A stretch of DNA of 64,000 nucleotides from a virus. The translations under genes were made by a program, and so were the position numbers. The first letter of the stretch is position 1. Each line of letters opens with the position of its first letter. This document shows, in pieces, positions 21,079 to 63,390 of this stretch. The stretch lies in IMG/VR virus record IMGVR_UViG_3300009285_005282, positions 55,737 through 119,736 of that record; one strand, 5' to 3'. Below the pieces are notes generated by a model. It saw only the letters and a list, made by a program, of their open reading frames with translations. It was not told where the DNA came from and did no database searches.

Positions 21079-22245
21079 ATGACGTTGCCAGCCGGTCTGG
21101 TGCTCGACCCCTACGATGACAGGTTCGCGTCTCTTCGGCGTTTCTTCCACACGGTTCCCGCGCCGGACTTTATCAAGCGCGCTACGGTGCTCACCACGCA
21201 GCAGCTGTCTCAGCTGCCAGATCACGCCTTTGCCGGCGTGTTGATAGATGGGGAGCGCAGGTTGCGCAAGTACGCCAGTGTCGACCCAGCACACGCGGCG
21301 GTCAACGTACTTTACTTTATCGACGCGTCGCCACAGCTCCCGCCACCGGCACGGGTCAAGATTGCTGCCAATCTGATCCGGGTTTGCAGCCATTACGGTC
21401 TGCGCCCACCGCAGCAGCTCGGCAAGGTCGCCGAGTTGGCGCGTCGGCGGCTGGTAAAGACCGACGGCAACCCCGTTCTCATGCCGGCGCGCGACCCTCG
21501 GAAGGCGTTGAACGAGCCACTGAGCAAGACCGCGGGTTCCCATGTCATCGAGGACCCCTACATCCGGTTGGACGAGCCTTTCCGTGCGGAGCACCGGATG
21601 GAGAAGATTGCTGCGGTGTTTGACGACGGGCGGTGGCCCCTTCGGGGGCACACCGAGGTTCTGCAGGCTGCGGAACGTTATCACGCTGAGCACTCGGGTA
21701 TGCACCCCCGGGTACGCCACCAGATGTGCGTCAAGATCGCCGGTGCTGCCGACCAGCTCGGGGTAACCGTACCCCCATCGCTGCGTGAGTACCAGAGTGA
21801 CTCCTATTCGGAGCCTATGTTGAAGCTGGGCGCGGAGATCCGACAGCAGGTGTGGGCACAAGCTGACGCGTCGGGACGCGGTCCTGACCTGCTGAAGTTG
21901 CTCATGCAGAAGCGCGCCAACGGTCTCTCACCGCACCGCTTCGCCGAGGACCTGGCGTTGATCGACACCGCAACGGGTGTTGACCATCTGTGGGGGCGGG
22001 CCATCACGGACCCCTGGCTCACCACGTTCGGCGGGCAGGTCAAGCACGCCGAGTGGCAATGGGCCGAGAACGGGTCAACCCTGACCGAGACGGAGCTGCG
22101 GCAGCTTCTGGAGCAAGGTCAGGAGCGCCTGCGTGCAGTGTTTGGTGCAGAGCTGGCCAACGGGCTGCAGGAGAACCCCACGGTGGTCTTCGACTCCCTG
22201 CCCACGGACACCAAGCTCGCGCTGGCGCGGTTGGCCCATGCCTGA
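21079..22245 (+). CDS. Putative internal head protein, KxA-rich
   Basis: GGAGG RBS; 10 of 14 lysines in K-x-A. Confidence 0.7.
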   Translation: MTLPAGLVLDPYDDRFASLRRFFHTVPAPDFIKRATVLTTQQLSQLPDHAFAGVLIDGERRLRKYASVDPAHAAVNVLYFIDASPQLPPPARVKIAANLIRVCSHYGLRPPQQLGKVAELARRRLVKTDGNPVLMPARDPRKALNEPLSKTAGSHVIEDPYIRLDEPFRAEHRMEKIAAVFDDGRWPLRGHTEVLQAAERYHAEHSGMHPRVRHQMCVKIAGAADQLGVTVPPSLREYQSDSYSEPMLKLGAEIRQQVWAQADASGRGPDLLKLLMQKRANGLSPHRFAEDLALIDTATGVDHLWGRAITDPWLTTFGGQVKHAEWQWAENGSTLTETELRQLLEQGQERLRAVFGAELANGLQENPTVVFDSLPTDTKLALARLAHA

Positions 22246-23170
22246 CACCTCGGCGGAACAGCGCTTTTTCAGACAGCTCGGGGGTACCGCGGAGCCCCAG
22301 CTCTCCGACAGTGCCTTGCAGGAGCTGGCTGAGGCAGAGGCCGAGAACGACGACGTTCAGCCTGTGGTGGAGTCCCGAGTGGACCCGGAGCCGAAGCCGG
22401 ACAGCGCCCCGGAGGACACCACGCCCTTCGTCCCCCAACGGATGCTGTCAAGCCATGACACCCACCCCCTCGTTCTGGACGCCTTGTTACTACGAGTTTT
22501 CGGACCGGATTGGCTAGGCTGGGAGCCCGAGGCGTTGGCGCAAGAGCTTCGGAGGGTTACCCGGCAGGAGCTCAGCGGAATCAACTGGCAGCAGATCCAG
22601 GCGGTCAAGACTTGCCACCTGGTGGACTCCCCCTGGCGTACTTGGGAGGTGTTCGCGGTGGTGTGTCAGGCGCTGAACAACTGCATCCCCAACTTTCGTA
22701 CGTTACAGGTCCCGACGGTGGCCCAGGTGTTGTGCGCGCTGGACATCATGGGGAGGATTGACAACCATCTGCTGTCCGACGAGGTGGAGCAGTTCATCGC
22801 CGCTACGTTTGTGGAGGAGGGAGTCCACTACCTTCCACCCCCCGCTGACGTCGCGCAGGAGTGGCTCTCCAGGCCGGTGTACCGGTGCACGGTTTGCGGT
22901 CGGGTGGACCGCGACGACTCCAACGACATGTGCGACAGCTGCGGCGCCCCGCAGGACAAGTTGCAACGGGAGCTCACCCGAGACCCGGAGCCGATCCGAA
23001 TTCGTTATGAGGAGTGCTTACAAGACCGGGCGGGGCACTCCGAGCTGCAAGAGACCCCCGTGGATATCCAGGCGGCGCGGCTCCTGGTAGCGCACGACTA
23101 CGTGGTGTTCCGGCGAGCGCAGCTGCAACAGCAAGTAAAGGAGCTGAACCGTGTCCAACTATTCGATTGA
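22238..23170 (+). CDS. Hypothetical virion-cluster protein with Zn ribbon
   Basis: Start MPDTS at 22238; CTVC...CDSC. Confidence 0.65.
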   Translation: MPDTSAEQRFFRQLGGTAEPQLSDSALQELAEAEAENDDVQPVVESRVDPEPKPDSAPEDTTPFVPQRMLSSHDTHPLVLDALLLRVFGPDWLGWEPEALAQELRRVTRQELSGINWQQIQAVKTCHLVDSPWRTWEVFAVVCQALNNCIPNFRTLQVPTVAQVLCALDIMGRIDNHLLSDEVEQFIAATFVEEGVHYLPPPADVAQEWLSRPVYRCTVCGRVDRDDSNDMCDSCGAPQDKLQRELTRDPEPIRIRYEECLQDRAGHSELQETPVDIQAARLLVAHDYVVFRRAQLQQQVKELNRVQLFD

Positions 23171-24017
23171 AATTGCTCGGGTGGAAGCACAGCTGCGCGA
23201 GATGGAGAAACACGCCGTTGACCCCGGATTGATGGCGCGGGCCGGGCAACGGTTTTGGGGTGCTAACCCGTGGTTGGGTCGCGGGCTAGGAATGGCAGGC
23301 GGCGCCGCTACGGGTGGGGGTGTGGGCTACGTTACCGCCAAGGATGAAGCGTCACGTCCCGCAAGTGTCATCCAAGGAGCGATGATCGGTGCTGGGGTAG
23401 GCGCGCTGGGCGGGCAGTTCGCTACCGCCCGGGGGGTAACCCAGGCGAAACACTTCGGGCAGCGCCAGCTCCACGGCGCGACAGGCTATCTCCCCGAGCA
23501 CGGACTGTTCGGGACCAAGAACATGCCCGCCAACGCCGTTGCGGCGCGAGCAACGCGCACCTCCGCGCTCAAGGACATGGGGTTTCACGTGCCCGAGGTA
23601 AAGTCAGTGGAGGAGTACCGCAAGAACCTGACGGCGCCGTGGCTGTTTGGGGGCGCGCGGGCCAAGCTGTACCGGGCGCGGGATCAGGCGCAGCGCACGC
23701 TGGTTGAGGAGAACATGACCAACCTGCCCGGGGTGGCTCGGGGCTACGTGGCACCACGCGAAGGTCTTCGGCGGCGCGATGTGCTTAAGGCCAATCTGCT
23801 GGCGCAGGGCGGTCTGGGGCTAGGGGCGGGTGCGTTGTTCGCCGCCCCTAGCGTGGTGAGTGCGGTACAGCAGCGCGACCCGAAAGAGGGTGTGCGCGCG
23901 CTTGTGGAGAACGCACCGTACATGCTGGCCTCTGCCATTCCGGTTGCGCCGATGATGGCCGCGGGCAGTCTTCTCTCCGCCGGGGTCGGTAGAGTGCTTC
24001 CTCGAAAGGAGCCGTAA
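23151..24017 (+). CDS. Glycine-zipper protein with leader ending EKHA (cargo family)
   Basis: LREMEKHA then GLGMAGGAATGGGVG...GAMIGAGVGALGG. Confidence 0.65.
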   Translation: MSNYSIEIARVEAQLREMEKHAVDPGLMARAGQRFWGANPWLGRGLGMAGGAATGGGVGYVTAKDEASRPASVIQGAMIGAGVGALGGQFATARGVTQAKHFGQRQLHGATGYLPEHGLFGTKNMPANAVAARATRTSALKDMGFHVPEVKSVEEYRKNLTAPWLFGGARAKLYRARDQAQRTLVEENMTNLPGVARGYVAPREGLRRRDVLKANLLAQGGLGLGAGALFAAPSVVSAVQQRDPKEGVRALVENAPYMLASAIPVAPMMAAGSLLSAGVGRVLPRKEP

Positions 24018-24018
24018 C

Positions 24019-25878: not shown

Positions 25879-25884
25879 TACCTG

Positions 25885-35026: not shown

Positions 35027-35028
35027 CA

Positions 35029-35430
35029 ATGGATCGCGCTTCGGAGATCATGTACCGAGCGTTCTTCGACGAGTTGGGGCACATCGAACGACACCGGCTG
35101 TCCAAACTGGCGGTAGATGCAGCAGCGGCTGCACAGCTCCCCGGTTTCATGAGCCGTGTCGGGCAAGGGTTGGTCAACCTGGGACAGCACGGGGCCGGTG
35201 CGGCAGGTAAGGCGATTCGTGCTGGGTACACCAACGCCGCCCAAGGCTTTGCAAAAGCCAACCCCGACGTGGGCTGGGTAGGACGGAACTGGCAGGGCGT
35301 GAAGGGCGCGCTACGAACGCCCGAAGGGGCAGCTGCCGCTCTCGGCGCCGGTGTGCTCGGCACGACCGCAGTCGGTGCTGGTGGGCTGGGCTACTTGCAC
35401 GGACGCAGCACAGCGGCCCCGCGGTACTGA
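35029..35430 (+). CDS. Glycine-rich protein with AFFDEL...SKLA leader (cargo family)
   Basis: GGAGG RBS; C-terminal ALGAGVLGTTAVGAGGLGY. Confidence 0.7.
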   Translation: MDRASEIMYRAFFDELGHIERHRLSKLAVDAAAAAQLPGFMSRVGQGLVNLGQHGAGAAGKAIRAGYTNAAQGFAKANPDVGWVGRNWQGVKGALRTPEGAAAALGAGVLGTTAVGAGGLGYLHGRSTAAPRY

Positions 35431-36557: not shown

Positions 36558-36841
36558 CCATGCTGAACGCTACCGCACTGGAGACGCAGATTTTGGAGCT
36601 CTATGCTCAGGAGCTGGCGGGGGCCTTTCCTGACGTGCTCAAAGGTGTTGAAATAGAGCGAGTGTCTCGTGAGGACGGCACCGAGCAGATAACCGTTGTG
36701 GAACGTCGTGGGCCGATCGAGGTAGACGCAAACAAACTGCGACCGTTGGCAAGAGCCATCGCGCAGGCGGTCGTGCAACACCTGGTCACGCACGGGGAAG
36801 CGGTAGACCCTGCGGGCGTGGCAAACTGGAGGTTGAGATGA
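36554..36841 (+). CDS. Small baseplate-associated hypothetical protein
   Basis: Follows spike; LARAIAQAVVQHL. Confidence 0.55.
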   Translation: MTMLNATALETQILELYAQELAGAFPDVLKGVEIERVSREDGTEQITVVERRGPIEVDANKLRPLARAIAQAVVQHLVTHGEAVDPAGVANWRLR

Positions 36842-48308: not shown

Positions 48309-49133
48309 ATGAACGGACACGGTGTCGACCCCGATTACCTGCGCCTGTTGGGTAAGCGGGCCAGCGCCGAGCACGTACAACACGGTACGGGTCTTACCGA
48401 CGCCGTGACGTCCGTGCTACGCACCGAACCGGGGCTGACTCCGGAGCATGTCGCACGGGTAACGGAGTTTGCCAACCACGCGACCTTTGACACGCTGTTT
48501 GACAAGAGCGCCGGGCACAAGGTCGTCGACTTCACGGGCGGACCAGCCGATCGTGAACAGGTGCTGCGCGCCCTACGTGGTAGTCTCACGCCAGACGTCG
48601 AGAAGGCGGCGAGCTACACGCTGTTGCCGGAAGAGCAGTTTCTCCCGGGTGCGGAAGCACTGCGGTGGACTTCACCCCAACGGGTCAAGGTCGCACACGA
48701 GGACGTACGAACGGACACCCGTGGTGAACACCCCTTGCGGGTGATGTTCCAGCTCAAGGAAGCACGAGATGTGCTGTACGACCGCCTGCGGAAGCAGCAG
48801 CACCTCTATGAGAAGACCTCGGACGTGCTGCGCAAGGAGGCGCGGGCAGCGATCATGTCGGGCCACTCCCCGACAGAGATCTACCGCGTCTTCGACCTGC
48901 GGTCGCCACACCCTGTTCTGACCAAGCTCGCGCTGCAGGTTGCCGCATCGGGTGTGGAGGACCTGCCGGCAGTCCTGGAGAAGCGAGCGGAGCAGCGAAC
49001 GCCAAACGACGAGCATCCGCTCTGTGTGTCCTTCGACGACTTTGTGAAGATTGCCGCTGCGCAGTTCCAACTGATCGCCGCGGTGGACAGTGTAGACACG
49101 CAGATTCAGCACTGTAGGAGGAGCGCATGTTGA
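48309..49133 (+). CDS. Putative internal head protein, KxA-rich
   Basis: 9 of 12 lysines in K-x-A. Confidence 0.7.
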   Translation: MNGHGVDPDYLRLLGKRASAEHVQHGTGLTDAVTSVLRTEPGLTPEHVARVTEFANHATFDTLFDKSAGHKVVDFTGGPADREQVLRALRGSLTPDVEKAASYTLLPEEQFLPGAEALRWTSPQRVKVAHEDVRTDTRGEHPLRVMFQLKEARDVLYDRLRKQQHLYEKTSDVLRKEARAAIMSGHSPTEIYRVFDLRSPHPVLTKLALQVAASGVEDLPAVLEKRAEQRTPNDEHPLCVSFDDFVKIAAAQFQLIAAVDSVDTQIQHCRRSAC

Positions 49134-49525
49134 CCTCACACGGTTTGCTGCAAGCAGCAGAGATGGTTCGCCGTACGCTGGAGAAGCAAGCGGCCCTGGC
49201 GGATGCTACGGTCAACGCCGGCCGCGCCACTGGTGGTGCGATGGGGGCGTTGTACAACCTCGCCGGCACGGCAACGAAGGAAATCGGCGGGGGTACGCAG
49301 CACGTGCTCCGCCACATTCCCTACGTCGGTCCGGCTATTGGGTGGGGTGCGAACGCCGCTATCCGTGCGGTACCCTGGGCAGCCGGTGCTTACGGCGCGG
49401 TCAAGGCGGATGACGCCGCGGGACAGCCTGTCCGCGGAGCAGCGCGTCAGCTGTGGTTGGCGCATAAACTTCGACAGGCGCAGCGGGGGGCGACGTTCGA
49501 CCCGAACATGGGGGTGATGTACTGA
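49127..49525 (+). CDS. Gly/Ala-rich protein with leader ending EKQA (cargo family)
   Basis: AGGAGGAG RBS; RRTLEKQAA. Confidence 0.65.
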   Translation: MLTSHGLLQAAEMVRRTLEKQAALADATVNAGRATGGAMGALYNLAGTATKEIGGGTQHVLRHIPYVGPAIGWGANAAIRAVPWAAGAYGAVKADDAAGQPVRGAARQLWLAHKLRQAQRGATFDPNMGVMY

Positions 49526-50322
49526 TGAACCCCATCGACCGCTTCCTCAGTAACGAACCGGAAGAGCAAGTCAAGACGGCGGGCTTCTGGGGCTCCTTGG
49601 GAAAGTTCGTCGAGAAGAACCAGGGCGTTACCGCTGCGGCGCTCACTGTCGCCGCCCCGGCCGTTGTCCTGGGTGTCCAACACGGTCTTGGGCAGCTCAA
49701 ACAGGTGGTGGACCGCAGCCGTGGCTTCAAGGCCATGATGGCTTCGGGCGGGCAGGAACTTCAGGACATGCCTGCTGCACGGGCGAAGTCGTTGTACAAC
49801 ACGTTGCACGTGGTAGCACCCACCCTGGCGCAGGACCCCAACATCGCCAAGTCATGGGTCAAACGTATGGCGTACCAAGAGGAGTACGTCGACCCAAAAA
49901 CCCTCAGCGACTTGGCAACCGCTGAGAGCCGCCTTGCCAAGGGGCTTGAGTATCCTGGTGCCCAGGTGGGACTGGCGCTTGGACAGCAGGTGGGTGCCTA
50001 CGACTTCACGCGTGCCCCCCGTGAGCAACGGGCAGCTCAGGAGCACGGGTGGAAGGGTCAGCAGGAGGTTCGGCAAGCAACTGAGCATGGGTGGAAGGGT
50101 AATCTAGAAGCTCGACAAGCGACTGAGCACGGGTGGAAGGGTCAGCAGGAAAGTCGGCAAGCAACTGAGCATGGGTGGAAAAACACGATAGTGGACCACG
50201 AGCACGCGCTGACCCGTATGCAGTACGACCAGATGCTGGACAAGCTGCGGTATGGTGCGCCCACCGAGCAAAATCCGAAGCCCGGGTACTTTCCAGACCC
50301 TGGCTACAACCGCACTCCATGA
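49525..50322 (+). CDS. Virion protein with leader ending VKTA and a 14-aa tandem repeat
   Basis: MNPIDRFLSNEPEEQVKTAG; hydrophobic segment; 4x EHGWK. Confidence 0.65.
   Translation: MNPIDRFLSNEPEEQVKTAGFWGSLGKFVEKNQGVTAAALTVAAPAVVLGVQHGLGQLKQVVDRSRGFKAMMASGGQELQDMPAARAKSLYNTLHVVAPTLAQDPNIAKSWVKRMAYQEEYVDPKTLSDLATAESRLAKGLEYPGAQVGLALGQQVGAYDFTRAPREQRAAQEHGWKGQQEVRQATEHGWKGNLEARQATEHGWKGQQESRQATEHGWKNTIVDHEHALTRMQYDQMLDKLRYGAPTEQNPKPGYFPDPGYNRTP
50032..50184 (+). repeat. In-frame 42-nt tandem repeat (x4)
   Basis: gagca[ct]gggtggaa at 50041, 50083, 50125, 50167. Confidence 0.9.
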
Positions 50323-53300
50323 TCGTCAAGCAATGCCAGTTCGCGGGGCGGGATGACACTGGGGAGCATATCCACCTTCTTCACCCCGGGTATGACAATT
50401 TCGAGCTCATGAAAACTGCCTCCGAGGAGGTCTCCCCACCGCAGCTCGAACGGGTGCGGGCGTTGATGCGCGATCTACCTCGGGAGACTGGGCGACTGTA
50501 CGCGCTGATCAGCGCCTTGGGAGCTTCCGAGTACTGGGGCTCGAATTCAAACGCTGATGACTTCGACACGGAGGCATTGGTGCGTGTACCGCCCGGTTGG
50601 TGGGAGCTACCCTACGAACAGCAGGTGCAGCTTGGAAAGAGGTGGGAGTGGGGATTCCCGACCTTTTACAACGCACATCTTTTCGCACACCACTGCTTTG
50701 TTGGGGGCACGCCAATCGTTATGGGGGACCGCACGCGCATCCCTATTGACCGGGTTCGTGCCGGTGACCTTGTGGCTACGCGAACAGGTCCCAAGAAGGT
50801 CACCCGCACTACTTCAAGAAAGTACGTCGGTGTTGGCACAGCGCTGACATTACAAGGGGTAGACACCCCGTTAGTTGGGACGCCGGACCACCCTGTTCTG
50901 GTACTGCGCCGTAAACAGGTTCATTGTCGCCACAAGTACAATAAGCTCGCGGCGTCAGAGCACCTAGCGCAGTGTGTGCAGGCACGAGAACCGATAGGTG
51001 CCCCTCAATGGGTGCCATTGGGAGAGGTACAGTTGGGAGATTACCTCCTAACGCCCGGTCCTATAACCGGAATCGAGACGCTTGAGCCTGAGTTTGCAGA
51101 GCTAGTAGGCTGGGTGGCCGCGGACGGGTATCTCGGCAAGAGGGGAACTATTCAATTTTCGTTTTCTTCAACGGGGGAAAAGCTAACATTGGTTGAACAG
51201 TGCCTTCGACGGAACAAATTACACGTAGGTGTGACCCCCCGTCTGCAGTACGGCGTGACGATGCTCAGCGCGTGCAGCGCAGCGCTCTCAAAACGCGTGC
51301 GTTGCTACGTAGTTGGGACAACTTCCGAGAAGCGACTAACCGCTGAAGTTCTCAAGTGGGACGTCGAAGCAAGACTGCAGTTGATTGGCGCCTATAGTGA
51401 CGGAGACGGATGTGTAACACCGGCAGAACTGCCTAACCGGGGGCAACTTCGGATTCGTAGCGCGTCCTCTCAAATGCTCTTTCTTCTTGCGGACTTAGCC
51501 CGTTCTCTGGGGGTGGCCGGAAGTATAAATTGGGATAGTCCCAGCGGTCCGATGATTTCTCCAACAAACGGGAAACAGTATTGGGGCGGTCCTTCCGGCT
51601 GTCTGGCGGTTGGGGCTAGCGGCGCAGCGGACCTGCTCAAGACCTGTCAGCGACTCAAGCCCGTAGCTCCGTATAGAAATTGCAGAGTTTACCCGTTTGA
51701 AGGCAGCATGTTCCTGGTGAAGGTGGTAGACAGCGATCCGGTTGAATTGAACGAGAACGTGTTCAACCTGGAGGTTGAAGATGAGCATGAGTATATCGCC
51801 AACGAAGTAGTCGTTCATAACTGTAACAAAGATCCCAATCGAGCGTTCGGGGACATTATCCATTCCGATTGGGACTCCCGAATGCACCGGGTGCTGCTCG
51901 TTGGCGCGTTTGACCACGATCGCGCACGTCGGTTTGGCGGACAGTCCGCGGTCGAACGTCTGGAGAACGGGGAATACCTTTCGGTCTCGATGGGTACAAA
52001 AGTTCCTTTCGATCTTTGCAGCTACTGTGTGGACTACGCTCGGGTGCTTCCACTACGCCCCCACCCCCAGCAAATTTTAGCTGAGCATCGCCAGAACCCA
52101 ATACGCGGTCTGAACGTCACCATCCGTGACTACTGCGAACACCTACGTCGGGAGAAGAACCACATTTACCCCAACGGGGTACGGGTCAGTATGCTGAACT
52201 GGCATCCACGTTTCTTCGACCTGTCCTGCGTGTTTGTGGGTGCCGACAAAACCTCGTTCGTCCTGGCCAAACTTGCGCACGAGTGCCCAATCCGTCCGGG
52301 GGTCAAAGAGTGTGGTAACTGCCCCCACGAAGAGTGTGTTCCATCGGCCCACGTACACGAGGTCTGGAGCAGGGACATGCAGAAAACAGCGAGCCCCACT
52401 GTGGACCTGCTAGCGCAGCGCCTTCAAGAGGCACGGGCCAAAACCGCTACCGCCAACAAGTCGGCGTTCGACAAGCAGTCGGAGATCTACAAGGACGTTC
52501 CTCCCAACGTGGGTCAGGTGCTGGCGCCGGTCACGGACGCCGAGCCCGACCTTCCAGAGGAGGTTGTGCGGGAGATGGCCCAGGACCCGGAGAACACACT
52601 GGCCTCCGGGCTGTCGATGGGGGTCATCGCCAAACCTCACGAGTTCCAACGGGTGATGCTCCACTCTACCAGGCGCGGTGACCTGGCTGAGGACTTGGAG
52701 CAACGCGGGTTGACGTTCCGTACCGGCGCACCTCCAGAGGGGTTCTGCCTGGGACGGGAGCTCCTCCCGCGCATCCTGGAGCTGCTTCTACCGTTGGTGG
52801 CGGCGCGCAGTATGCTGTCGCGTCCGCTGGCCAAACGAATCATCGCCACCGGCGGGCGAACGGGGGACATGATCCACCTCCACCTACGCGCCGACGCTGA
52901 CACACCGGACGCGGCGTTGGAGATGGCCTTTCAGAAGTGGTTGGGCGCTCGTCGTGAAGCCAACCGTACCCGCACGGCGTTGGAGGACCCGCTCATGGAC
53001 AAGCTGAGCGCAGCGTACTCCGCCTACCGGCGCGACGCGGTTTACGCAGCACCGGAGCTGCTGCGTCGAGGACTGTTGGAGCACACCAAGCTAGCGGAAG
53101 CGCTGTGTGATAGCGACCTTTACACCCCCGGGCTTGCCAAGACGGCGGGGGACGTGCTTGAATTAGTTGGAATGGCGTCCGTCGCGTACCTCAACGGAGC
53201 ATATTTGAAGGAACCTGCTTCGCAGTATGTGGCGACGCACTGTAACCTGTCCGGCCTGGAAAAGGCAGCCGGACTAGCACGGCTGAGTGGGGTCGCGTAG
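50319..53300 (+). CDS. Prohead maturation protease (HK97/assemblin-like) with intein and KxA-rich C-terminal extension
   Basis: ATGA overlap at 50319; spliced FAHH|CNKD...VSMGTKVPFDLCSYC...FFDLSCVFVGAD; upstream of capsid. Confidence 0.75.
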   Translation: MIVKQCQFAGRDDTGEHIHLLHPGYDNFELMKTASEEVSPPQLERVRALMRDLPRETGRLYALISALGASEYWGSNSNADDFDTEALVRVPPGWWELPYEQQVQLGKRWEWGFPTFYNAHLFAHHCFVGGTPIVMGDRTRIPIDRVRAGDLVATRTGPKKVTRTTSRKYVGVGTALTLQGVDTPLVGTPDHPVLVLRRKQVHCRHKYNKLAASEHLAQCVQAREPIGAPQWVPLGEVQLGDYLLTPGPITGIETLEPEFAELVGWVAADGYLGKRGTIQFSFSSTGEKLTLVEQCLRRNKLHVGVTPRLQYGVTMLSACSAALSKRVRCYVVGTTSEKRLTAEVLKWDVEARLQLIGAYSDGDGCVTPAELPNRGQLRIRSASSQMLFLLADLARSLGVAGSINWDSPSGPMISPTNGKQYWGGPSGCLAVGASGAADLLKTCQRLKPVAPYRNCRVYPFEGSMFLVKVVDSDPVELNENVFNLEVEDEHEYIANEVVVHNCNKDPNRAFGDIIHSDWDSRMHRVLLVGAFDHDRARRFGGQSAVERLENGEYLSVSMGTKVPFDLCSYCVDYARVLPLRPHPQQILAEHRQNPIRGLNVTIRDYCEHLRREKNHIYPNGVRVSMLNWHPRFFDLSCVFVGADKTSFVLAKLAHECPIRPGVKECGNCPHEECVPSAHVHEVWSRDMQKTASPTVDLLAQRLQEARAKTATANKSAFDKQSEIYKDVPPNVGQVLAPVTDAEPDLPEEVVREMAQDPENTLASGLSMGVIAKPHEFQRVMLHSTRRGDLAEDLEQRGLTFRTGAPPEGFCLGRELLPRILELLLPLVAARSMLSRPLAKRIIATGGRTGDMIHLHLRADADTPDAALEMAFQKWLGARREANRTRTALEDPLMDKLSAAYSAYRRDAVYAAPELLRRGLLEHTKLAEALCDSDLYTPGLAKTAGDVLELVGMASVAYLNGAYLKEPASQYVATHCNLSGLEKAAGLARLSGVA
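50694..51821 (+). mobile_element. Intein 4 (376 aa) with LAGLIDADG endonuclease in protease
   Basis: CFVGGTPI..., TPDHP, VGWVAADG, GAYSDGDG, ends VVHN with +1 Cys. Confidence 0.92.
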
Positions 53301-53351: not shown

Positions 53352-54188
53352 ATGAACGAGTTTTTGGCGAATTACTACGGTACCGTAGCCCAAACGCAGG
53401 CCCCTTCCGCCAACGACGAGTTGGAGAAGATGGCCGAACTGACCCTGCTCGCGCAGGAGGCCCAAGCTCAGGGCCTGTCCCTGGAAGGCGTTCCCGAGGA
53501 CGAGCTGCTCAAGATCGCCCACGACCTGTACGGCGGCCCGGACGCCCAGATGGAGAAGGACGCCGAGGCCATGTTGAGGGAGTTCGAGCTCGGCGGGCAG
53601 ATCATGGCCCACGCCTTCACTCGGGAAATGCAAGAAATCGAGAAGGCCGCCGGGATCGGAGAGTGGGCAGGTCGAGCGGGGACTGCGATCAAGAACGCTC
53701 CCGGAACGGTCGCGGAGCATCTCGGTGCGCCTCTCATGGACAAGAGGACGGTAGCGCAGGCTATCGCAGAGTCGCGAGAGGCGGCACGTCAGACCGCCGG
53801 TGCCGCTTACGGCAGCTTGTCCCCCACGGCACAGCGGGAGTTCGATCAGCACGCGCACACGCTAGCCAGTCAGCGGCTGAGCGCGGCGGCACGCAAACGC
53901 GGGTACGCTGCGGCCGGAACCGCGACCGGAGTGGCGGGGCTGGGCGGTGGGGCGATTGCCCTACGCAACCGCGGCAACTCCGAAGAGATGCCCAAGGAGG
54001 GAGCGGCCTTCGATCAACTGGTCGCGCAGCGCGCCTACGAGCACCTGAAGACCGCCGGCTACGACGCCGACGCCTTCTTCGGTGTCGACCAGACGAAGAC
54101 CGCTGCGGATGAGCTGAACATGGCAGTCGACACCGCCGCCCTCCAGTTCTTGGAGGCTCACGGCGTGCCGGTGCAGTGGAATCGCTGA
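53352..54188 (+). CDS. KxA-rich head protein with internal Gly-rich cassette
   Basis: 7 of 10 lysines in K-x-A. Confidence 0.7.
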   Translation: MNEFLANYYGTVAQTQAPSANDELEKMAELTLLAQEAQAQGLSLEGVPEDELLKIAHDLYGGPDAQMEKDAEAMLREFELGGQIMAHAFTREMQEIEKAAGIGEWAGRAGTAIKNAPGTVAEHLGAPLMDKRTVAQAIAESREAARQTAGAAYGSLSPTAQREFDQHAHTLASQRLSAAARKRGYAAAGTATGVAGLGGGAIALRNRGNSEEMPKEGAAFDQLVAQRAYEHLKTAGYDADAFFGVDQTKTAADELNMAVDTAALQFLEAHGVPVQWNR

Positions 54189-54195
54189 GCAGGAC

Positions 54196-54468
54196 ATGCT
54201 TCGGGTGGAGTATCTGGCAGCAATGATGCGTGAGTTGCTCAAGATGGCAGCTAGCCCCATCGGTGCGGTCAGAGCCCCAACGGTGCCTGGTGTACCGTTG
54301 GGGCGACTCACCCCGAAAGCTCCTGTACCGGTGACTCCGAACTTGGCGAAGGGCGCACCTGGAATGGTGCAACGGACAAATTACACCGCGGTCGCCGCTC
54401 GACCAGCGGCAGTGAATCACGAGCTCACCGCCGGGCAGAAGGCCATGCCGCTCCCAGTGGTGCAGTGA
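54196..54468 (+). CDS. Small Pro-rich protein with RELLKMA leader
   Basis: YLAAMMRELLKMAA. Confidence 0.6.
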   Translation: MLRVEYLAAMMRELLKMAASPIGAVRAPTVPGVPLGRLTPKAPVPVTPNLAKGAPGMVQRTNYTAVAARPAAVNHELTAGQKAMPLPVVQ

Positions 54469-54479: not shown

Positions 54480-55907
54480 ATGTTGTCCCTCAACGATCTA
54501 ATCCAGCAAGCGCTGCTGGATGGCCGTCACGGGGCGCTCTCCAAGATCGCTGAGGAGACGTCCGGTGAGGCAAGCAGCGAGTCCTGTGTCGATTGTGGCC
54601 GACCCGCCATTCCGGGCCAACAGCTCTGTCAGGACTGTGCCCAGCGGCGACTCGGCTCGGAGCAGGCAGCCGCGGCCACCAGCGAAGTCGAGAAGACCTC
54701 TTCGGCGCGAGTGGAGCGGCTGGCGAGCGCGGTCGACTTTGCGCTGCGTAACCCGTCCTGGGTAAGCAGCTACGTGAAGCTGGCCGAGGGTGATGGCCCC
54801 GGTGAGGGCGCGGGGGCGCTCGACATGGACCTGACAGCGCCCACGGTCGGCCTTGGTCCGGCCTCTTACCAAGGGTCGAAGGTCAACGCTATCCCGCTGA
54901 CCCCCCCGATGGAGTCCGGCGTGGCTGGCGGGCCGGCCACGGCGATGGGCACGGATATGGACGATACCCCCGGCGGGACCGAGTCTGGTGTGACCAACAA
55001 CATGGGGTCTGCCAAGGTGGCAACGTCGGCTCTCGGTGGCGCTATAGCCGGTGGTCTGCTGGGTACGGGTGTAGGAGCCGGTGTTGGGGCGCTGAGCGCT
55101 CCGAAAGGGCAGCGAGCGGAGGGGGCACGTCGCGGGGCGTTGATCGGGAGCGCCACGGGACTCGTAGGTGGGGGTCTTACGGGGGCAGCTGCCGCGAGCC
55201 GTCTAGCACGTACGCCTGAGGAGGCGCGTACGCTGCAGGGGATGCGCGAGCTGGGGTTCAGAGCGGGCCGCGGCGACCAGGTAGCGCAGCAAACGCTGCA
55301 AGAAGCGCAAAAAATTCTCCGAACGCCGGCCCCGAGGGAACGCGGTGCGAGCATTGCGGGCGCCATCATCGGCGCGGGGGGTGCTATCGGCGGGGGTATC
55401 GCTGCTGGACGTACCGTTCGCAGGCCCGATGCGGAGCAGGTGTCCCCCAAGGTGGCAGCGATACATCGTGTGATGCTCAAACGGGCTCAGCCCGAGGCAG
55501 AAAGTGCTCTACCGGAGAACCGGCCAGATCCGATGGTGCGCCCGGCGGAGGCAACCAGCCAGATGAAGCTGCTCGCGACCAACGAGGCAGCGATCAACTT
55601 CACTCCTCGTGATGCGGCTGTGGTGCCGAAGAAGCAAATGGGCGAGATGCTCGACGAACCCATGCAGAGCGCCTTGGGGGATTCAGCCCTCAAGGATCAG
55701 CTCGGCGCGGCGCTCGTCAACGAAGCTGGGGCCAAGGTCGCCAGCGCGCGACAGACCGTAGCTTCGCTGCTGAAGGTTGCGGGTGAGGGTTGCTCTTGTG
55801 GCTCCCACGGAACCTGCACCTTCTGCAAGGTTGCTTCATTGGCCGAACGGAAGCGGGCTCGACAGGCCGGTGTCGGGAACGCAGTCGTTCCAACGCGGGG
55901 TCGGTAG
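54480..55907 (+). CDS. KxA-rich head/scaffold-like protein with glycine-zipper cassette and Zn motifs
   Basis: 9 of 17 lysines in K-x-A; CVDC..CQDC; CSC...CTFC. Confidence 0.7.
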   Translation: MLSLNDLIQQALLDGRHGALSKIAEETSGEASSESCVDCGRPAIPGQQLCQDCAQRRLGSEQAAAATSEVEKTSSARVERLASAVDFALRNPSWVSSYVKLAEGDGPGEGAGALDMDLTAPTVGLGPASYQGSKVNAIPLTPPMESGVAGGPATAMGTDMDDTPGGTESGVTNNMGSAKVATSALGGAIAGGLLGTGVGAGVGALSAPKGQRAEGARRGALIGSATGLVGGGLTGAAAASRLARTPEEARTLQGMRELGFRAGRGDQVAQQTLQEAQKILRTPAPRERGASIAGAIIGAGGAIGGGIAAGRTVRRPDAEQVSPKVAAIHRVMLKRAQPEAESALPENRPDPMVRPAEATSQMKLLATNEAAINFTPRDAAVVPKKQMGEMLDEPMQSALGDSALKDQLGAALVNEAGAKVASARQTVASLLKVAGEGCSCGSHGTCTFCKVASLAERKRARQAGVGNAVVPTRGR

Positions 55908-55916: not shown

Positions 55917-56276
55917 ATGGAAAAGGTTTCAGCACAACAAGTCCTACGCGTGCTCCGAGAGGTGCCCCCTACCCTTCGTAAGCTCGCTGCCGAGCGTGAC
56001 CAGCTCGCCCAGGAGAACCATCAGCTCCGAACGAAGCTGAACCAAACTCTCCTGAACGACCGGGTCGAGAAGCTGGCGCACGAGCTGCACGCCAAACACC
56101 TGCATCAGGGACGCTCCATGGCTCAGACCAGGGAGATCCTGTTGCAGAAGGCGGCGAGTGGCGATCTGCGGGTGGTCGAGGAGGCGATGAAGATCGCTGC
56201 CTCCCCGTCCGTACTGGGATCGGTGGGTGAGGTGCCCTCCGGAGGGAACCGACTGGAGGAGTTCGTTCTCAGCTGA
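55917..56276 (+). CDS. Putative scaffolding protein
   Basis: Coiled coil, KLA/KAA/KIA sites, two genes before capsid. Confidence 0.55.
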   Translation: MEKVSAQQVLRVLREVPPTLRKLAAERDQLAQENHQLRTKLNQTLLNDRVEKLAHELHAKHLHQGRSMAQTREILLQKAASGDLRVVEEAMKIAASPSVLGSVGEVPSGGNRLEEFVLS

Positions 56277-56793: not shown

Positions 56794-57927
56794 ATGAGCG
56801 CAATACCGAATGATGTGTTCAACCGTCTCTTCATGGACAAGCTCAGCACCACCGAGGGTCAAGAGAAGATCGCGGAGTACGGTGGCGAGTACATCCGTGA
56901 CCACCTGCGTGAGGCGCAGTTCTCCCGAGGGATCATCCCGCCGGAGAACATTTCCGCGAACGACCCGCGGGTTCAGATCTCCATGAATCACGACACCCTG
57001 GTCGTCTTGGAGATGCTGGAGCCGCAAAGTCGAGCCATGGCGCTCAACTTCCGTGGTGTCGCGGACGTGCAGCTCATCCGGGCGTCCCGCATGGAGATCC
57101 CGTTCTTCATGATCAGCAGCCTCCGGTTTGAGGCTTACGAGGAGGAGTTGCTGGTGTACCGCAACTTCAAACTCACCAAGATCCTGGAGGACAACCTCGG
57201 CAAGGACATCGGAGACGTCGAGGACCGTGAGTTCACGATCCACGTCGACGCCGCCGTCCAGGCCCTGCAACAGGAGGCGAATGGCGGGGTGGTGACGTCG
57301 CTGCACCAAACCACCATTGCGGCCGGCACCGTCGTGGAGACGGGGGTGCGCAAGGGTGAGCTCGCCCGAGTAGACGCCAACAACAACGCCGTGGTGTGGC
57401 CAATGCAACGGCCCGACGTCGTCAGCGGCCACAAGCTGCTCGACGGTACTCGGCGGCGGTGCGAGAAGGTCCTGCTCAGCGAATCGGACTTCGACGACAT
57501 CAACTCCTGGACCATCGACGACATGGGCTCGCCCAAAGAGTCGGAGTCTCTGATCGACGGGTTCAAGGGTCCGACCCTCATTGGACGCGGCTACGTGCGG
57601 ACCATCAAGACCGAGATCCTCAAGCCCGGCAACCTCTACTTCTTCACCGGGCCGGAGTGGCTGGGGCGGTTCTACATCCTGAACAACGTGAAGTTCTACA
57701 TCGACAAGGTGGGGAACAAACTCACGTTCTTCGCGTGGGAGGACATCGCCCTGTCACTGGTCAACATCGCCAGCGTGCGCAAGGTCGAGACCTACTCGGG
57801 TGACGCTACCGCGAACGACGCCAACGGCATTCGGGCAACGGTAAGCCCGGTCGCCGAGACGGCGCTTGGGGCGCAGTTCAACCGAGTGGACGACGGGGTG
57901 TTCTTCCCGCAGGTCAACTTCTTCTAG
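56794..57927 (+). CDS. Major capsid protein (probable HK97 fold)
   Basis: GAGGAG RBS; 377 aa; follows protease/scaffold; strongly biased codons; followed by strong terminator. Confidence 0.75.
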   Translation: MSAIPNDVFNRLFMDKLSTTEGQEKIAEYGGEYIRDHLREAQFSRGIIPPENISANDPRVQISMNHDTLVVLEMLEPQSRAMALNFRGVADVQLIRASRMEIPFFMISSLRFEAYEEELLVYRNFKLTKILEDNLGKDIGDVEDREFTIHVDAAVQALQQEANGGVVTSLHQTTIAAGTVVETGVRKGELARVDANNNAVVWPMQRPDVVSGHKLLDGTRRRCEKVLLSESDFDDINSWTIDDMGSPKESESLIDGFKGPTLIGRGYVRTIKTEILKPGNLYFFTGPEWLGRFYILNNVKFYIDKVGNKLTFFAWEDIALSLVNIASVRKVETYSGDATANDANGIRATVSPVAETALGAQFNRVDDGVFFPQVNFF

Positions 57928-59289: not shown

Positions 59290-59292
59290 GCA

Positions 59293-59772: not shown

Positions 59773-59781
59773 GGTGAGCCG

Positions 59782-61476
59782 ATGTTAGACGACTACGTGA
59801 CCGGTACGCACGGAGAAATCCCTTGGGTGGCCGCTGCGGAGTTTTACGCACGGGTTACCCGTCCGGCGGTGCCTGAGGCGAGGATGACCAAACAAGCCAC
59901 GCTCGGCCTGCTCAAACTCGCAGCGCTGAACAAGAAGTGCGAGGACGCTTTACCGCCGCAGGTTGCCGCACTTCAGGCGCAGGCCATGACCGATCCTGAC
60001 GTCGTAGCAGCGTTGGACTGGCAAGAGGCGCAGGCGGAACGACAGGCGCTGCAGGGTACGGTGCAGACGTTAGAGTACCAAGTCTCCGACCTGCAGCAGC
60101 AACAGCAGCAGGTAGTGCAGCAAGCGCAACAGCAAGCTGCCGTCAACCAGCAGCTGCAGGCACAGGTGCAGCAGGCAGTTACCGACCGGCAGGCTGCTAC
60201 TGAGCAAGCTCTGGCAGCGCGGGACAGTGCGCTGCAGGAGCAGGTCGTTGCGCAGCAGAACCGGCAGCAGCTCATGGCAGCAGCGGACCAGCTCGCGCTC
60301 CAACTCAAGCAAGTTGCGGCTCAACCGACCGCCGCGGAGCAAACCGCCATGGCAGGAGCTCAGCCTTCACCTGACGCAGTGGCACCACCCGAAGCGCAAG
60401 GAGTGCCCCTTTCGGCACGCGCTGCACAGGAGACACAGCAAGCGCAAAAAGCGCAGGAGCAGGCGCAGATTCAGGCACAGCAGGCAGCCCAGGCGCAGGC
60501 CGAGGACCAGGCCAAGATGGGCAGCGACCGTGTGGCTGAGCTACGTCGCAGGTTGGCGTTAGCTAAGACCGCCGGAGTCGCGTCCTGGGCCGTGCCGCTT
60601 GTGGCTGGTACGGGTGCGGGTGCCGCGCTCGGTGCCGGCGGAGCGGCCATGGCGGCGCCAGAGGGACGTCGAGCTGCAGCGGCTAAAAGGGGTGCGCTAG
60701 TGGGTGCAGGATTGGGTCTAGCCAGCGGCGGGCTGCACGGGGCAGCTAAGCACACACAACGCGCGGCGGACCTACAGGTGGCCCGCATGCTCGACGAGGA
60801 AAAACAACTCAAAAATTTCATCGAGTTTGCCCCCCGTGGGCTCTCCTTGCACAAGTTAGACATACACGAGTTGCACCCCCATAGGCTCTCCTTCCTCGAT
60901 GAGGAAACGGTGTCGGGGATGAGGAACCGCATCGCGGTTCGAGATGCCGCGGCACGCCGGGTGGTGGGGTTGGGTCTAGCCTCCACGGCTGTCGGTTTGA
61001 CGGCGCTTCCGGCCGGGGTGGGAGTTGGCTTGCACGATCGGTACCGCGCTGCACAGGAGAAGACCGCTGGGGGCAAGTTGACGGCGGGGATGGCGCTTGG
61101 GGGAGCGGCTTTGGGCGCTGGATATGGGGGCGTGTCCGCCATCCGACAGGGACGGCAGGGGCGGGACAAGCCCAACGACCGCGAGCTCGACCTGGCGAAC
61201 CGGATTCAGGTCGCCAAAGCTAAGGCCGAGCGTAGCCCTTCCTACCGGGCCGATGTGCGCATCGCACGGATGCAGTTCCTCAAGGACGTTGCTGAGTCAG
61301 ACCGTAAACATCCTGGAGGGGAAGTGCTCCACAATGCAGTCTCGGGTGCCCTGGCAGGGGCTCTAACCGCGGTCGTAGCTGGGGCAGCGCGGAACAAGTG
61401 GCGAGAGATGGCCAACTTCAACTCCAAGGCGGTAATCGACCGAGCCTTGCAGCAGGTCAGAAAGGCACAGCCATGA
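59782..61476 (+). CDS. Gln-rich coiled-coil protein with two KTA-delimited glycine-zipper cassettes
   Basis: KQA, KLA, KMG, KTA, KTA sites; poly-Q coiled coil. Confidence 0.7.
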   Translation: MLDDYVTGTHGEIPWVAAAEFYARVTRPAVPEARMTKQATLGLLKLAALNKKCEDALPPQVAALQAQAMTDPDVVAALDWQEAQAERQALQGTVQTLEYQVSDLQQQQQQVVQQAQQQAAVNQQLQAQVQQAVTDRQAATEQALAARDSALQEQVVAQQNRQQLMAAADQLALQLKQVAAQPTAAEQTAMAGAQPSPDAVAPPEAQGVPLSARAAQETQQAQKAQEQAQIQAQQAAQAQAEDQAKMGSDRVAELRRRLALAKTAGVASWAVPLVAGTGAGAALGAGGAAMAAPEGRRAAAAKRGALVGAGLGLASGGLHGAAKHTQRAADLQVARMLDEEKQLKNFIEFAPRGLSLHKLDIHELHPHRLSFLDEETVSGMRNRIAVRDAAARRVVGLGLASTAVGLTALPAGVGVGLHDRYRAAQEKTAGGKLTAGMALGGAALGAGYGGVSAIRQGRQGRDKPNDRELDLANRIQVAKAKAERSPSYRADVRIARMQFLKDVAESDRKHPGGEVLHNAVSGALAGALTAVVAGAARNKWREMANFNSKAVIDRALQQVRKAQP

Positions 61477-61790
61477 GCTCGGACGTTTTCGAGAAAGCCT
61501 TTGCTTCTGAAGTACCCATCGGCAGCGCCGCCACTCAGCTGCGCAAGCTGGCAGAGAGCATCGAGGTGCATGGGCGTCGAAGTGAGGAGAGCACGGATCT
61601 TGCCAAAGCGCTGGAGCGGGTCACGGCGAAGAAGAGCGGCTCGGTCACTCGGTTGACCAGCGGCGACGACCGCGAAACCCGTCAGCCCGAGAGGCACCCG
61701 TTGGAGGCGCTTATGATCACCCCCTGCGATGGGCGAACGCGGGTGTGGCCCACATCGCCGCTGGAGCGGCCTCCAACGCGTTCTATGTGA
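61473..61790 (+). CDS. Hypothetical protein (KLA site)
   Basis: ATGA overlap at 61473. Confidence 0.55.
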   Translation: MSSDVFEKAFASEVPIGSAATQLRKLAESIEVHGRRSEESTDLAKALERVTAKKSGSVTRLTSGDDRETRQPERHPLEALMITPCDGRTRVWPTSPLERPPTRSM

Positions 61791-61799
61791 GCTGTTTGA

Positions 61800-62681
61800 A
61801 TGCTGCGTGTCACCAACCTAGCGGTCCGGTCTTTGGACGTTGACTACCTGGACCTGTTCTGGGAGGTAGAGAACACGTTCGAGGACCCGCTGGACTTCAC
61901 CTTCGTTGTGGAGCGCAGCGAGTCCCCGTTGGGTCCGTGGGACCCGGTGTCCGAGCCCTTCTCCGACCGCTACTTCTTTCGTGACGTCGTCATTCCGTCC
62001 TTCAACCGTTACCGAAAACTGTGGTACCGCATCCGGGTCACCCGCATTCTGGATGACAAGGTAGCCTACTCCGAGATTGACACGCGTGGCCCGGAGCCGG
62101 ATCTCATTGCCTTGGAGGTACGCAGGCAGGAGTTACTGCTCTTTCAGGAGCACATTGGGCGACAGGTGTGGATCTTTCCGATCCGCACGTTTGGCCAGCG
62201 TTGCCCGGCCTGCTACGACCGGGTCCAGCGCGTACGGCTCAAGTCGGCGTGCCTCACCTGCTACAACACGGGGTTCACTCGCGGGTTCATGGACCCTATC
62301 GTGTCCTGGGTGCAGATCGACCCTGCGGTAGAGGTCACTCAGCCCGGACCGTTGATGCAGGACCAGACCCAGAACGCCACTGCTAGATTGCCCTGGTTCC
62401 CGCCGCTCAAGACCGGTGACGTAATCGTGGAGGCGGAGAACGTTCGCTGGGCGGTCAACCCCGTGACCACCACCCAACGGCTGCGAGCGCCACTGCACCA
62501 AGAGGTCACCATACACCACATCCCGGAGTCCGATATTGAATACCGGCTCCCGATCAACATCGACAGCTTGCGGGAACTGCAGCCCAACCCCAAACGGGTC
62601 TTCACCAACCCTCACCATCTGCGTTCGGGGACCTACGTGGACCTGCGAACCGACGAACTCAAAGGATACGACTATGAATAA
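61800..62681 (+). CDS. Putative neck/head-closure protein with FN3-like N-terminus and Zn motif
   Basis: VTNLAVRS...LFW...FVVERSES; RCPAC...CLTCYNTGF. Confidence 0.55.
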   Translation: MLRVTNLAVRSLDVDYLDLFWEVENTFEDPLDFTFVVERSESPLGPWDPVSEPFSDRYFFRDVVIPSFNRYRKLWYRIRVTRILDDKVAYSEIDTRGPEPDLIALEVRRQELLLFQEHIGRQVWIFPIRTFGQRCPACYDRVQRVRLKSACLTCYNTGFTRGFMDPIVSWVQIDPAVEVTQPGPLMQDQTQNATARLPWFPPLKTGDVIVEAENVRWAVNPVTTTQRLRAPLHQEVTIHHIPESDIEYRLPINIDSLRELQPNPKRVFTNPHHLRSGTYVDLRTDELKGYDYE

Positions 62682-63390
62682 CCTACAAGCCCGCGCTTTC
62701 GTTATTGAGCTAGCAGAGCTGGAAAAGTTGGGGCGGACAGGCTCGATCCGACGTGTCTGGGCAAGGCACGCTCCTGCTATCGTAGCCGGGACTGGTGCCG
62801 TACTGGGAGGAGTAAGCGGGGCGCTACACACCGACAACGAAACCCCAAATCCGACAGTGGCGCAGCGAGTACGCAACGCCGCGCTATCGGGTGTGGTGGT
62901 TGGGTCATTGGCAGGGCTAAGTGTGCACGGCATCCGTAGGTTGAAGCGAGCTATGGCGTACGCCCCCAATGCTCAGCTTCGTGCGGCACGGGCTGTTCGG
63001 GAGAACAAGCTGTCGCCGTCGCTCGAGCGCATGATTGACGATTTTGACTTGGCGCAGGCCAAGAAACGCGCCCTGGCGAAGACCGCTACAGAGCAAGTGC
63101 AGCCGCAGCGGCGGGGGACGAACAGCGAAGAGTTCAAGCAGTTTCTCAAGAACACTGGCTACATAGCTCTCGGAACGGGAGTTGGTGTTGGAGGGATGAC
63201 GCTGCTTCGCCCAGTTGCCGAGAAGTACCTGCCCCGAGTCCCCAAGAATATACTGACCCCGGCGGTGGCGCTCACTACTACGGCTGCTGGGGTTGGCGCC
63301 GCCGAGCTCCTACGGCGGTTGGCAGAGCGTAAACGGCAAACGCTCGACGAGGCGTACGAGCGCGGCGAAAGGATGCGGCGTGGCGAGTAA
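62674..63390 (+). CDS. Glycine-zipper protein with AFVIELAELEKLG leader (cargo family)
   Basis: Two hydrophobic Gly hairpins separated by AKTA. Confidence 0.65.
   Translation: MNNLQARAFVIELAELEKLGRTGSIRRVWARHAPAIVAGTGAVLGGVSGALHTDNETPNPTVAQRVRNAALSGVVVGSLAGLSVHGIRRLKRAMAYAPNAQLRAARAVRENKLSPSLERMIDDFDLAQAKKRALAKTATEQVQPQRRGTNSEEFKQFLKNTGYIALGTGVGVGGMTLLRPVAEKYLPRVPKNILTPAVALTTTAAGVGAAELLRRLAERKRQTLDEAYERGERMRRGE

Follow-up and report, generated by a model that had tools for sequence, protein, structure and literature searches.

Known head-maturation proteases read a P3-x-P1 pattern in their substrates: T4 gp21 cuts at L/I-x-E, and the herpesvirus assemblin cuts at (V/L/I)-x-Ala followed by Ser, with Ala at P1 and a small residue at P1'. 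Among large phages, the proteases of T4, phiKZ, 201phi2-1 and SPN3US all cut after Glu, as far as the available parts of the two papers that describe them go (PMC5694885, PMC10052503); in T4, core proteins are cut to short fragments, and N-terminal propeptides are found on the major capsid protein (MCP) as well as on internal proteins (available part of PMC5694885). The stretch of DNA analysed here (the window) makes up the final 64 kb of one viral contig, 119,736 bp long (IMG/VR record IMGVR_UViG_3300009285_005282, positions 55,737 to 119,736; GC content 0.63), in which proteins of the head module carry a different short motif, K-x-A, that is Lys followed by Ala two residues on. An earlier reading of the letters alone (the original prediction) had proposed that K-x-A marks the cleavage sites of a head protease encoded by open reading frame (ORF) 50319, which is interrupted by an intein. 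The K-x-A excess is real, protein-level, position-specific and Lys-specific, and seven ORFs, named here by their positions, make up the set that was pooled (ORFs 48309 and 54480 are also called 48294 and 54465 from their GTG starts):

21079..22245, plus strand: K-x-A-saturated protein of 388 amino acids (aa); 10/14 Lys in K-x-A, 1.7 expected, P 3.5e-7
36838..38808, plus strand: K-x-A-saturated protein of 656 aa; 11/21 Lys, P 4.5e-6
48309..49133, plus strand: K-x-A-saturated head-module protein, in the ORF from GTG 48294; 9/12 Lys, P 3.1e-7
50319..53300, plus strand: putative prohead serine protease with a gp21/assemblin fold and a helical C-terminal domain; 9/38 Lys, P 7e-3
53352..54188, plus strand: K-x-A-rich, Ala-rich protein just 3' of the protease; 7/10 Lys, P 9e-4
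54480..55907, plus strand: K-x-A-rich protein with Gly-rich hydrophobic stretches, in the ORF from GTG 54465; 9/17 Lys, P 6.6e-4
55917..56276, plus strand: small helical K-x-A-rich protein 5' of the MCP gene; 4/7 Lys, P 2.8e-3

Compared with T4 gp21 (PDB 5JBL), which cuts after Glu, the motif itself differs: over the seven ORFs, K-x-A is found 59 times for 14.4 expected (P 1e-18, a pooled value that is descriptive), whereas [LI]-x-E is found 38 times for 28.8 (P 0.06) and A-x-E 28 times for 27.3; sites of the T4/phiKZ-type Glu code are thus not enriched in these ORFs. ORF 50319 has no sequence-level similarity to gp21 (Pfam S77 was not found) and, unlike gp21, has a Cys-rich insert, a helical C-terminal domain of ~300 aa and an intein. 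Herpesvirus proteases (assemblin, MEROPS S21) fill most rows of our fold searches after gp21, and their P1 Ala with a small P1' can be set beside the likely register here, K-x-A and then S/A/G. The phages with S80 proteases (phiKZ gp175, 201phi2-1, SPN3US gp245) are alike in being large, in packing many proteins including a multisubunit virion RNA polymerase (RNAP) and in using a short motif for the processing of a set of head proteins, with propeptides that hold several sites and a protease that cuts itself at its C-terminus (available parts of PMC5694885 and PMC10052503). They differ in the motif, A-x-E in SPN3US with an S-x-E example in phiKZ according to the same partial sources, where our seven ORFs have 49 [SAG]-x-E for 57.3 expected, and in the RNAP, whose beta and beta' parts are fused in one chain here and which is no conserved carrier of the motif. 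True homologues of ORF 50319 are found in phage G (gp19), Arash (gp222) and D181 (protein 277), in syntenic head modules where K.A (K-x-A written as a gapped residue pair) is the top pair; these phages have other hosts, other GC contents and proteases without an intein, and the available parts of PMC10585845 and PMC12484599 hold no description of their cleavage specificity.

Counts, controls and conservation of K-x-A

K-x-A was counted in the translations of the 58 ORFs of the window, and the binomial P of each ORF was set against that protein's own Ala content. Six of the fractions listed above, all but that of the protease, had been counted by hand in the original prediction; they prove exact when recounted from the translations, and the enrichment beyond Ala content holds once observed and expected values are computed for each ORF. 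P runs from 3e-7 to 7e-3 across the seven ORFs, and after Bonferroni correction for ~103 ORFs 21079, 36838 and 48294 are significant alone while the other four lean on their homologues. For these three, none of 10,000 shuffles, global or in 20-aa blocks, reaches the observed count, and local composition is rejected as a cause since the excess persists under block shuffling; the carriers are Ala-rich (Ala fraction 0.10-0.20). Among 1600 residue pairs (gaps 0-3) in the seven ORFs, K.A ranks first, followed by L.K (34 vs 12.6 expected) and M.K (11 vs 2.6), and the logo of the 59 sites has L/M/F at -2 (34/59), L/V/T/I at +1 and G/A/S/E at +3. No excess is seen in these proteins at the Lys offsets K+1, K+3 and K-2 or for R-x-A. 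Ala is the sole residue enriched at K+2 (Ser 8 vs 6.4 expected, Gly 4 vs 9.7), and the extension of the code to K-x-S/G finds no support, as neither residue is enriched here or in the larger family of 48309 described below. At the codon level, AAR-NNN-GCN occurs 59 times in frame, with counts of 1 and 2 for the two remaining phases; because this pattern is almost wholly in frame, the signal is a protein-level one, and a DNA-level motif (3 occurrences out of frame in all) is rejected.

The remaining 96 ORFs of the genome have 85 K-x-A for 91.6 expected, with no excess, and no ORF is enriched in the first 55.7 kb of the record. By eye, the replication proteins, the spike, the portal and the MCP body had seemed free of excess; this is what the counts give for the replication proteins, the spike and the MCP body (1/16 Lys), as for the RNAP (9/165 Lys), and the portal is marginal (4/17 Lys, P 0.07). 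A 1461-aa ORF outside the window was considered as a carrier and rejected (4/68 Lys, P 0.93, overall not enriched).

A search with the MCP gave 16 related IMG/VR loci (49-64% identity, contigs up to 196 kb), in which genes were called crudely as longest ORFs and ORF counts per locus are lower bounds. Upstream of the MCP gene, K.A is the rank-1 gapped pair in 9 of the 12 non-redundant loci and rank 2 in one; in the two remaining loci (L008 and L011) 1-2 ORFs were called. From the MCP gene downstream, no K.A enrichment is found in any of the 12. When viral contigs were searched directly with 36838 and 21079 there was no match, and their homologues were reached through five 168-196-kb relatives found via the MCP loci: all five homologues of 21079 have 11-13 sites (P 7e-4 to 1.3e-5) and all five homologues of 36838 have 11-14 (P 5e-4 to 1e-7), and in both families many of the sites align. 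In 36838 itself, the N-terminus and the C-terminal third hold most of the sites, with few in the beta-rich centre. Neither protein has a Pfam or PHROG match, and an Atlas search with 36838 gave no usable lead. The homologues of 53352 in two related loci (L001 and L003) are enriched too, those of 54480 have 11/24 (L001) and 14/38 (L013) of their Lys in K-x-A, and the ORFs at the position of 55917 have 6/8 (L013), 7/8 (L014) and 7/8 (L015).

ORF 48309 is the counterpart of Salmonella phage Arash gp220 (blastp E 1e-4). The sites of its family align by column in 8 sequences (28-44% identical, blastp) while the middle residue varies, and in 14 sequences (23-46% identity) the pairs K16/A18 and K225/A227 never vary and K247/A249 hardly does. 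A word-indexed search found 9 proteins of this family and a profile search 1423 cluster representatives; the 155 that were examined hold 1406 K-x-A for 388 expected, and 144 of them are enriched at P<0.01. At +2 of their Lys, Ala is enriched 3.6x (Ser 0.90x, Gly 0.85x), position -2 favours L/F/M, and position +3 favours S (3.7x), A and G. Conserved sites stand at aligned positions in relatives of 23-49% identity, and in three families (48309, 36838, 21079) the conservation of Lys is 0.47 in K-x-A vs 0.27 for other Lys (P 0.014) and that of Ala 0.59 vs 0.28 (P 3e-5), the middle residue scoring 0.22 vs 0.32 for all residues. Because Lys and Ala are more conserved than elsewhere and the middle residue less, the alignments indicate that K-x-A is under selection. 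Conservation of the sites in homologous phage proteins had been proposed as a check, and both the enrichment and the aligned sites are indeed kept.

The cultured relatives extend this over a wide range of base composition. The head module of Arash is syntenic (gp220 = 48309, gp221 = 49525, gp222 = protease, gp226 = MCP), and K.A is its top gapped pair (GC 0.53; 44 vs 19.7, P 1.6e-6) with L.K second; K.A again ranks first in the head module of Vibrio phage D181 (GC 0.44; 59 vs 32.7) and, weakly, in that of Bacillus phage G (GC 0.31; 33 vs 18.9). As K.A is the top pair in all three, the motif, judged on these sequences, travels with the protease family across GC 31-68%.

ORF 50319 and the position of the sites

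We regard ORF 50319 as a putative prohead protease of the gp21/assemblin fold (MEROPS clan SH: S21, S77, S78, S80), on the strength of a modelled fold and a chain of homology. The features of immediate concern are:

50694..51821, plus strand: intein, aa 126-501 of ORF 50319 (Pfam Intein_splicing E 4e-7, Vint E 2e-4)
50412..50420, plus strand: K32-T-A34, the site that borders the protease domain on its N-terminal side
56794..57927, plus strand: MCP, weak match to phrog_2522 major head protein (E 4.5e-4)

Sequence profiles say little of the enzyme: Pfam matches ORF 50319 through its intein and Hint domains only and gives no match for three relatives up to E 10, PF03420 and PF04586 were not found in the genome, no S77, S78, ClpP or S49 protease was found in the record, and a PDB profile search by sequence found no protease. 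Two models were made with AlphaFold 2 (AF2), one of a full-length relative (9 sequences), in which the catalytic domain is poor (predicted confidence, pLDDT, 60), and one of the N-domain alone (51 sequences; pLDDT 79), in which residues 1-26 are disordered and the first helix starts from residue 32. With the latter, Foldseek against the PDB places herpesvirus proteases and T4 gp21 at the top (E 0.2-1.5); against predicted viral structures it gives 16 matches at E<=1e-3, including Bacillus phage G gp19 (BFVD, 2e-10), followed by proteins named prohead protease at E 1e-3 to 1e-2. The homology chain runs through tblastn matches of the domain to Vibrio phages D148 and D69 and to D181, Arash gp222 and phage G gp19 (E 5e-9 to 1e-20 for these last three), and from there through matches to PHROG 18299 'head maturation protease' (E 2e-6 to 1.5e-19 for Arash gp222, phage G gp19 and the N-terminus of Pleione gp100; E 2.6e-19 for phage G gp19 and 2e-6 for Arash gp222); the domain of one related locus (L010) matches phrog_2774 alone (E 1e-3). 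In the available part of PMC12484599, phage G gp19 is called head maturation protease. His127, Ser184, Asp192, Asp199 and His226 are invariant in 51 family sequences, in an order and spacing of His/Ser/Asp that resemble H77/S153/D178 of SPN3US gp245 (available part of PMC5694885); the counterparts of His127 and Ser184 in ORF 50319, His125 and Ser557, are its candidate catalytic residues. The head-module placement (protease at 50319-53300, MCP at 56794, small Ala-rich ORFs between) is that of a prohead protease gene, and 11 related loci, as well as Arash, share the protease-to-MCP gene order. Placed just 3' of the protease, ORF 53352 is a candidate scaffold or core protein.

The intein begins with Cys1 (C126) and ends with H500-N501 before C502 as the +1 nucleophile, has a LAGLIDADG-like core and is inserted directly after the invariant His-His of the protease; the 376-aa block is missing from 8/8 aligned relatives. 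The Hint domain, Cys1, the His-Asn end, the +1 nucleophile and this absence from orthologues make it a Class 1 intein with a homing endonuclease. The protease family has 590 members, none annotated, and many have an intein at the same place. Both parts of the original description of this ORF, a head protease and an intein within it, are thus supported, the first at the level of a fold family. A distant homologue of the domain occurs in Cluster C (Bxz1-like) mycobacteriophages (209/230 records of one search), where it is annotated as hypothetical in most records; in Mycobacterium phage Pleione it forms the N-terminus of gp100, a 1369-aa protein encoded just upstream of the MCP gene.

The K-x-A positions match expected propeptide and autoprocessing sites, a conclusion supported in the protease, the MCP and the N-terminal leaders. 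In the protease itself, the sites named originally are all present (K32 MKTA, K651 AKLA, K689 QKTA, K708 AKTA, K714 NKSA). Across its family, K4-x-A is found in 45/51 sequences and K26-x-A28, which is K32-x-A34 of ORF 50319, in 43/51, both ahead of the folded domain; the Lys of these two leader sites is kept in 51/51 and 48/51, and Ala is replaced mainly by Ser, which stands in for Ala at the conserved family sites in 3-15 of 51 sequences. More conserved sites lie in the low-confidence linker after the protease domain and in the helical C-terminal domain. Of the 12 sites in the modelled relative, 7 are in segments that cover 35% of the model, a preference for disordered segments that is suggestive only. 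The MCP has one K-x-A, K25-I-A27 (nucleotides 56866-56874), ahead of its conserved N-arm, and K-[IVL]-A is found at this spot in 13/13 homologues; the cultured relatives have VKEA (Arash gp226) and TKEA (D181) there. Within the first 40 aa, K-x-A occurs in 15/29 plus-strand virion-module ORFs vs 8/74 others (Fisher P 2.4e-5), and several of these leader carriers are small Gly-rich proteins. The features of a T4-like layout are therefore present: motif-ended leaders on the MCP and internal proteins, and six ORFs with 4-11 sites each. With saturation or an N-terminal site as the mark, ~14-15 ORFs of the window are carriers, and the figure of about 15 proteins given originally stands as a count of carriers. 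Besides the ORFs already listed, they include:

23151..24017, plus strand: Gly-rich protein, leader ending in K20-H-A
35014..35430, plus strand: small Gly/Ala-rich protein, leader ending in K31-L-A
49127..49525, plus strand: small Gly/Ala-rich protein, leader ending in K20-Q-A
49525..50322, plus strand: protein with a leader ending in K17-T-A-G, the counterpart of Arash gp221
54196..54468, plus strand: small protein, leader ending in K16-M-A
59782..61476, plus strand: Ala/Gln-rich protein with sites at K37, K45, K262 and K427 (4/23 Lys, overall not enriched)

Small Gly/Ala-rich, glycine-zipper-like proteins are scattered over the plus strand (23151-24017, 35014-35430, 40263-40796, 49127-49525, 54196-54468, 62674-63390); in most of them a short leader at the N-terminus ends in K-x-A, the one at 62674 has E-K-L-G instead, and the one at 40263 lacks any K-x-A. 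Before the window, at genome positions 33372-34130, an ORF has a leader ending in E-L-E-K-L-A, and another at 34333-34746 begins with M-L-K-L-A.

Proposed cleavage by ORF 50319 and the alternatives

We hypothesize that ORF 50319 is the head-maturation protease of this phage and that it recognises, and cuts at, the motif [L/F/M]-x-K-[T/L/V/Q]-A-[S/A/G], and we hold this to be reasonably probable. From the enrichment, conservation, fold and site positions observed above we infer the cutting, the enzyme responsible and the bond. The intein beside the catalytic His would have to splice out of ORF 50319 first; inside the prohead, the protease would then trim itself, at K32-T-A before the catalytic domain and in the cluster K651-K714 after it, and would remove the MCP leader of ~27 aa; about seven further proteins of the virion module would lose leaders of 12-37 aa. 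The six saturated proteins (21079, 36838, 48309, 53352, 54480 and 55917) would be cut into short pieces, much as the core proteins of T4 are by gp21. The cut itself would probably fall after Ala (P3 Lys, P1 Ala), a register favoured by the P3-x-P1 reading of the known enzymes and by the small residue that follows Ala; the alternative register, a cut after Lys (P1) with a hydrophobic P3, is the less likely one. A literature search found no paper describing a K-x-A head-protease code, and against the literature found the specificity can still be called new.

A wider scenario is possible, although we put it forward tentatively: in a very large clade of 120-200-kb phages that is almost wholly uncultured (with Arash, D181 and perhaps phage G as cultured outliers), a gp21-fold protease may have exchanged Glu for Ala at P1, with Lys at P3, which would give it the P1 of herpesvirus assemblin, and one code may be used in three ways, (i), to shred at least six head-interior proteins to peptides of ~20-60 residues, (ii), to release leaders from glycine-zipper cargo proteins, and (iii), to trim the protease itself, the whole programme being gated in this phage by the intein beside the catalytic His.

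Several observations weigh against cleavage by ORF 50319. The seven ORFs were chosen post hoc, homologues are non-independent samples whose family counts are not separate events, and the portal is without clear enrichment. The fold evidence for ORF 50319 is moderate. In the modelled relative, 5/12 sites lie in confidently folded helices; some K-x-A must therefore be out of reach for cutting. The RNAP was considered as marked cargo and rejected, its K18-E-A being absent from 4/4 readable homologue N-termini. Pleione has K.A as its top gapped pair at 17 vs 8 (P 3.5e-3), which is not significant among 400 pairs, and we do not claim a K-x-A code in Cluster C mycobacteriophages. Arash virions contain RNAP beta, beta', sigma and gp218-gp226, and among these are the K-x-A-rich gp220, gp223 and gp225 (available part of PMC10585845); because they are listed in virions, the K-x-A-rich proteins of Arash are not simply cleared. 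The available text of the same paper has neither the word 'protease' nor 'cleav', and the coverage figures it gives are indecisive either way. Finally, the record is 68% complete by CheckV, close relatives being 168-196 kb, so that roughly one third of the genome is probably missing from it and another protease could lie in that part.

One alternative is that K-x-A is an uncleaved docking tag which binds the scaffold, the inner capsid wall or the C-terminal domain of the protease for packaging. The frequency of K-x-A near the N-termini of virion-module ORFs, the presence of K-x-A-rich proteins in Arash virions (available part of PMC10585845) and the capsid-targeting sequences known in T4 (available part of PMC5694885) would all fit a tag; however, 9-14 copies along a single chain, turning over in variable linkers, suit cutting better, and the sites flank the protease's own catalytic domain. 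We consider a tag without cleavage unlikely, bearing in mind that targeting sequence and cut site coincide in T4 and that docking may be complementary to cutting rather than exclusive of it.

The incomplete record, together with the fact that the protease activity of ORF 50319 is a prediction, leaves room for a different enzyme, either of the host or encoded in the missing third of the phage genome, with ORF 50319 having some other specificity. This is distinctly unlikely: the motif and the protease family co-occur across Salmonella, Vibrio and Bacillus-like hosts, which argues against a host enzyme, conserved sites lie at the termini of the protease family itself, and the searches of the record mentioned above returned no S78, S77, ClpP or S49 match. 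The strict requirement for Lys, with Arg not accepted, could also suggest that the epsilon-amino group matters and that K-x-A marks Lys of head-interior proteins to be modified covalently or cross-linked (acylation, methylation, ADP-ribosylation or an isopeptide bond) in place of cutting. Pfam and PHROG searches found no modifying enzyme in the head module, N-terminal leaders and the edges of the protease domain are typical places of processing, and a strict small residue at +2 followed by S/A/G is a protease-like subsite pattern; we find modification highly improbable. That K-x-A is merely a structural habit of Ala-rich helical proteins (helix starts, packing), as the Ala content of the carriers and several sites at helix starts or within helices of the model might suggest, is scarcely credible, given that the enrichment outlasts block shuffling, is restricted to Lys, Ala and +2, is common to unrelated families but absent from the 96 other ORFs including Ala-rich ones, and leaves the middle residue freer than average.

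If cleavage by ORF 50319 is correct, the K-x-A code would reveal a plastic specificity in an ancient enzyme family and place a phage enzyme near the herpesvirus proteases, which are specific for Ala. The motif would then be a simple sequence rule for picking out head-interior proteins, scaffold proteins and probably those that are ejected, and for predicting the ends of their mature forms, useful in genomes where ~80% of genes are unannotated and with a reach given by the 590 members of the protease family and the 1423 cluster representatives of one substrate family. Cultures exist of Arash, the Vibrio phages and phage G, and the virions of Arash and phage G have already been analysed by mass spectrometry, meaning that the prediction can be tested quickly.

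Other genes of the window

The replication genes form a minus-strand block at ~5-20.6 kb of the window and the virion genes lie on the plus strand from 21 kb on; most of the remaining ORFs of the window have no Pfam or PHROG match. The other features with an assignment are:

24019, plus strand: portal, weak match (phrog_16240, E 1.6e-7)
26288-35026, plus strand: fused beta-beta' RNAP of 2912 aa, with Rpb2 (beta) and Rpb1 (beta') domains and signals of an intein, LAGLIDADG and a homing endonuclease
35430, plus strand: spike, baseplate-hub-like by profile match
41991-45089, plus strand: large terminase (phrog_675, E 2e-36), split by an intein with a LAGLIDADG endonuclease
45392-46357 and 46422-47387, minus strand: two paralogous pentapeptide-repeat proteins of 321 aa (A-D-L-x-x type)
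1593-4205, plus strand: repeat-rich tail-fibre-like protein of 870 aa (phrog_11518, E 5.5e-55)

The RNAP is one ORF within the virion gene block, the open frames of its relatives being ~1900-2080 aa; Arash has one gene for beta and another for beta', with products that are abundant in virions, according to the available part of PMC10585845. Inteins interrupt at least three key genes of this phage, those of the terminase, the protease and the RNAP. The two pentapeptide-repeat paralogues have a C-terminal domain in common; their genes separate the terminase from the head module and are read from the opposite strand. The tail-fibre-like protein has 6 Lys in total, and Y-E-R-A-K-I-A is found inside its first 15 residues.

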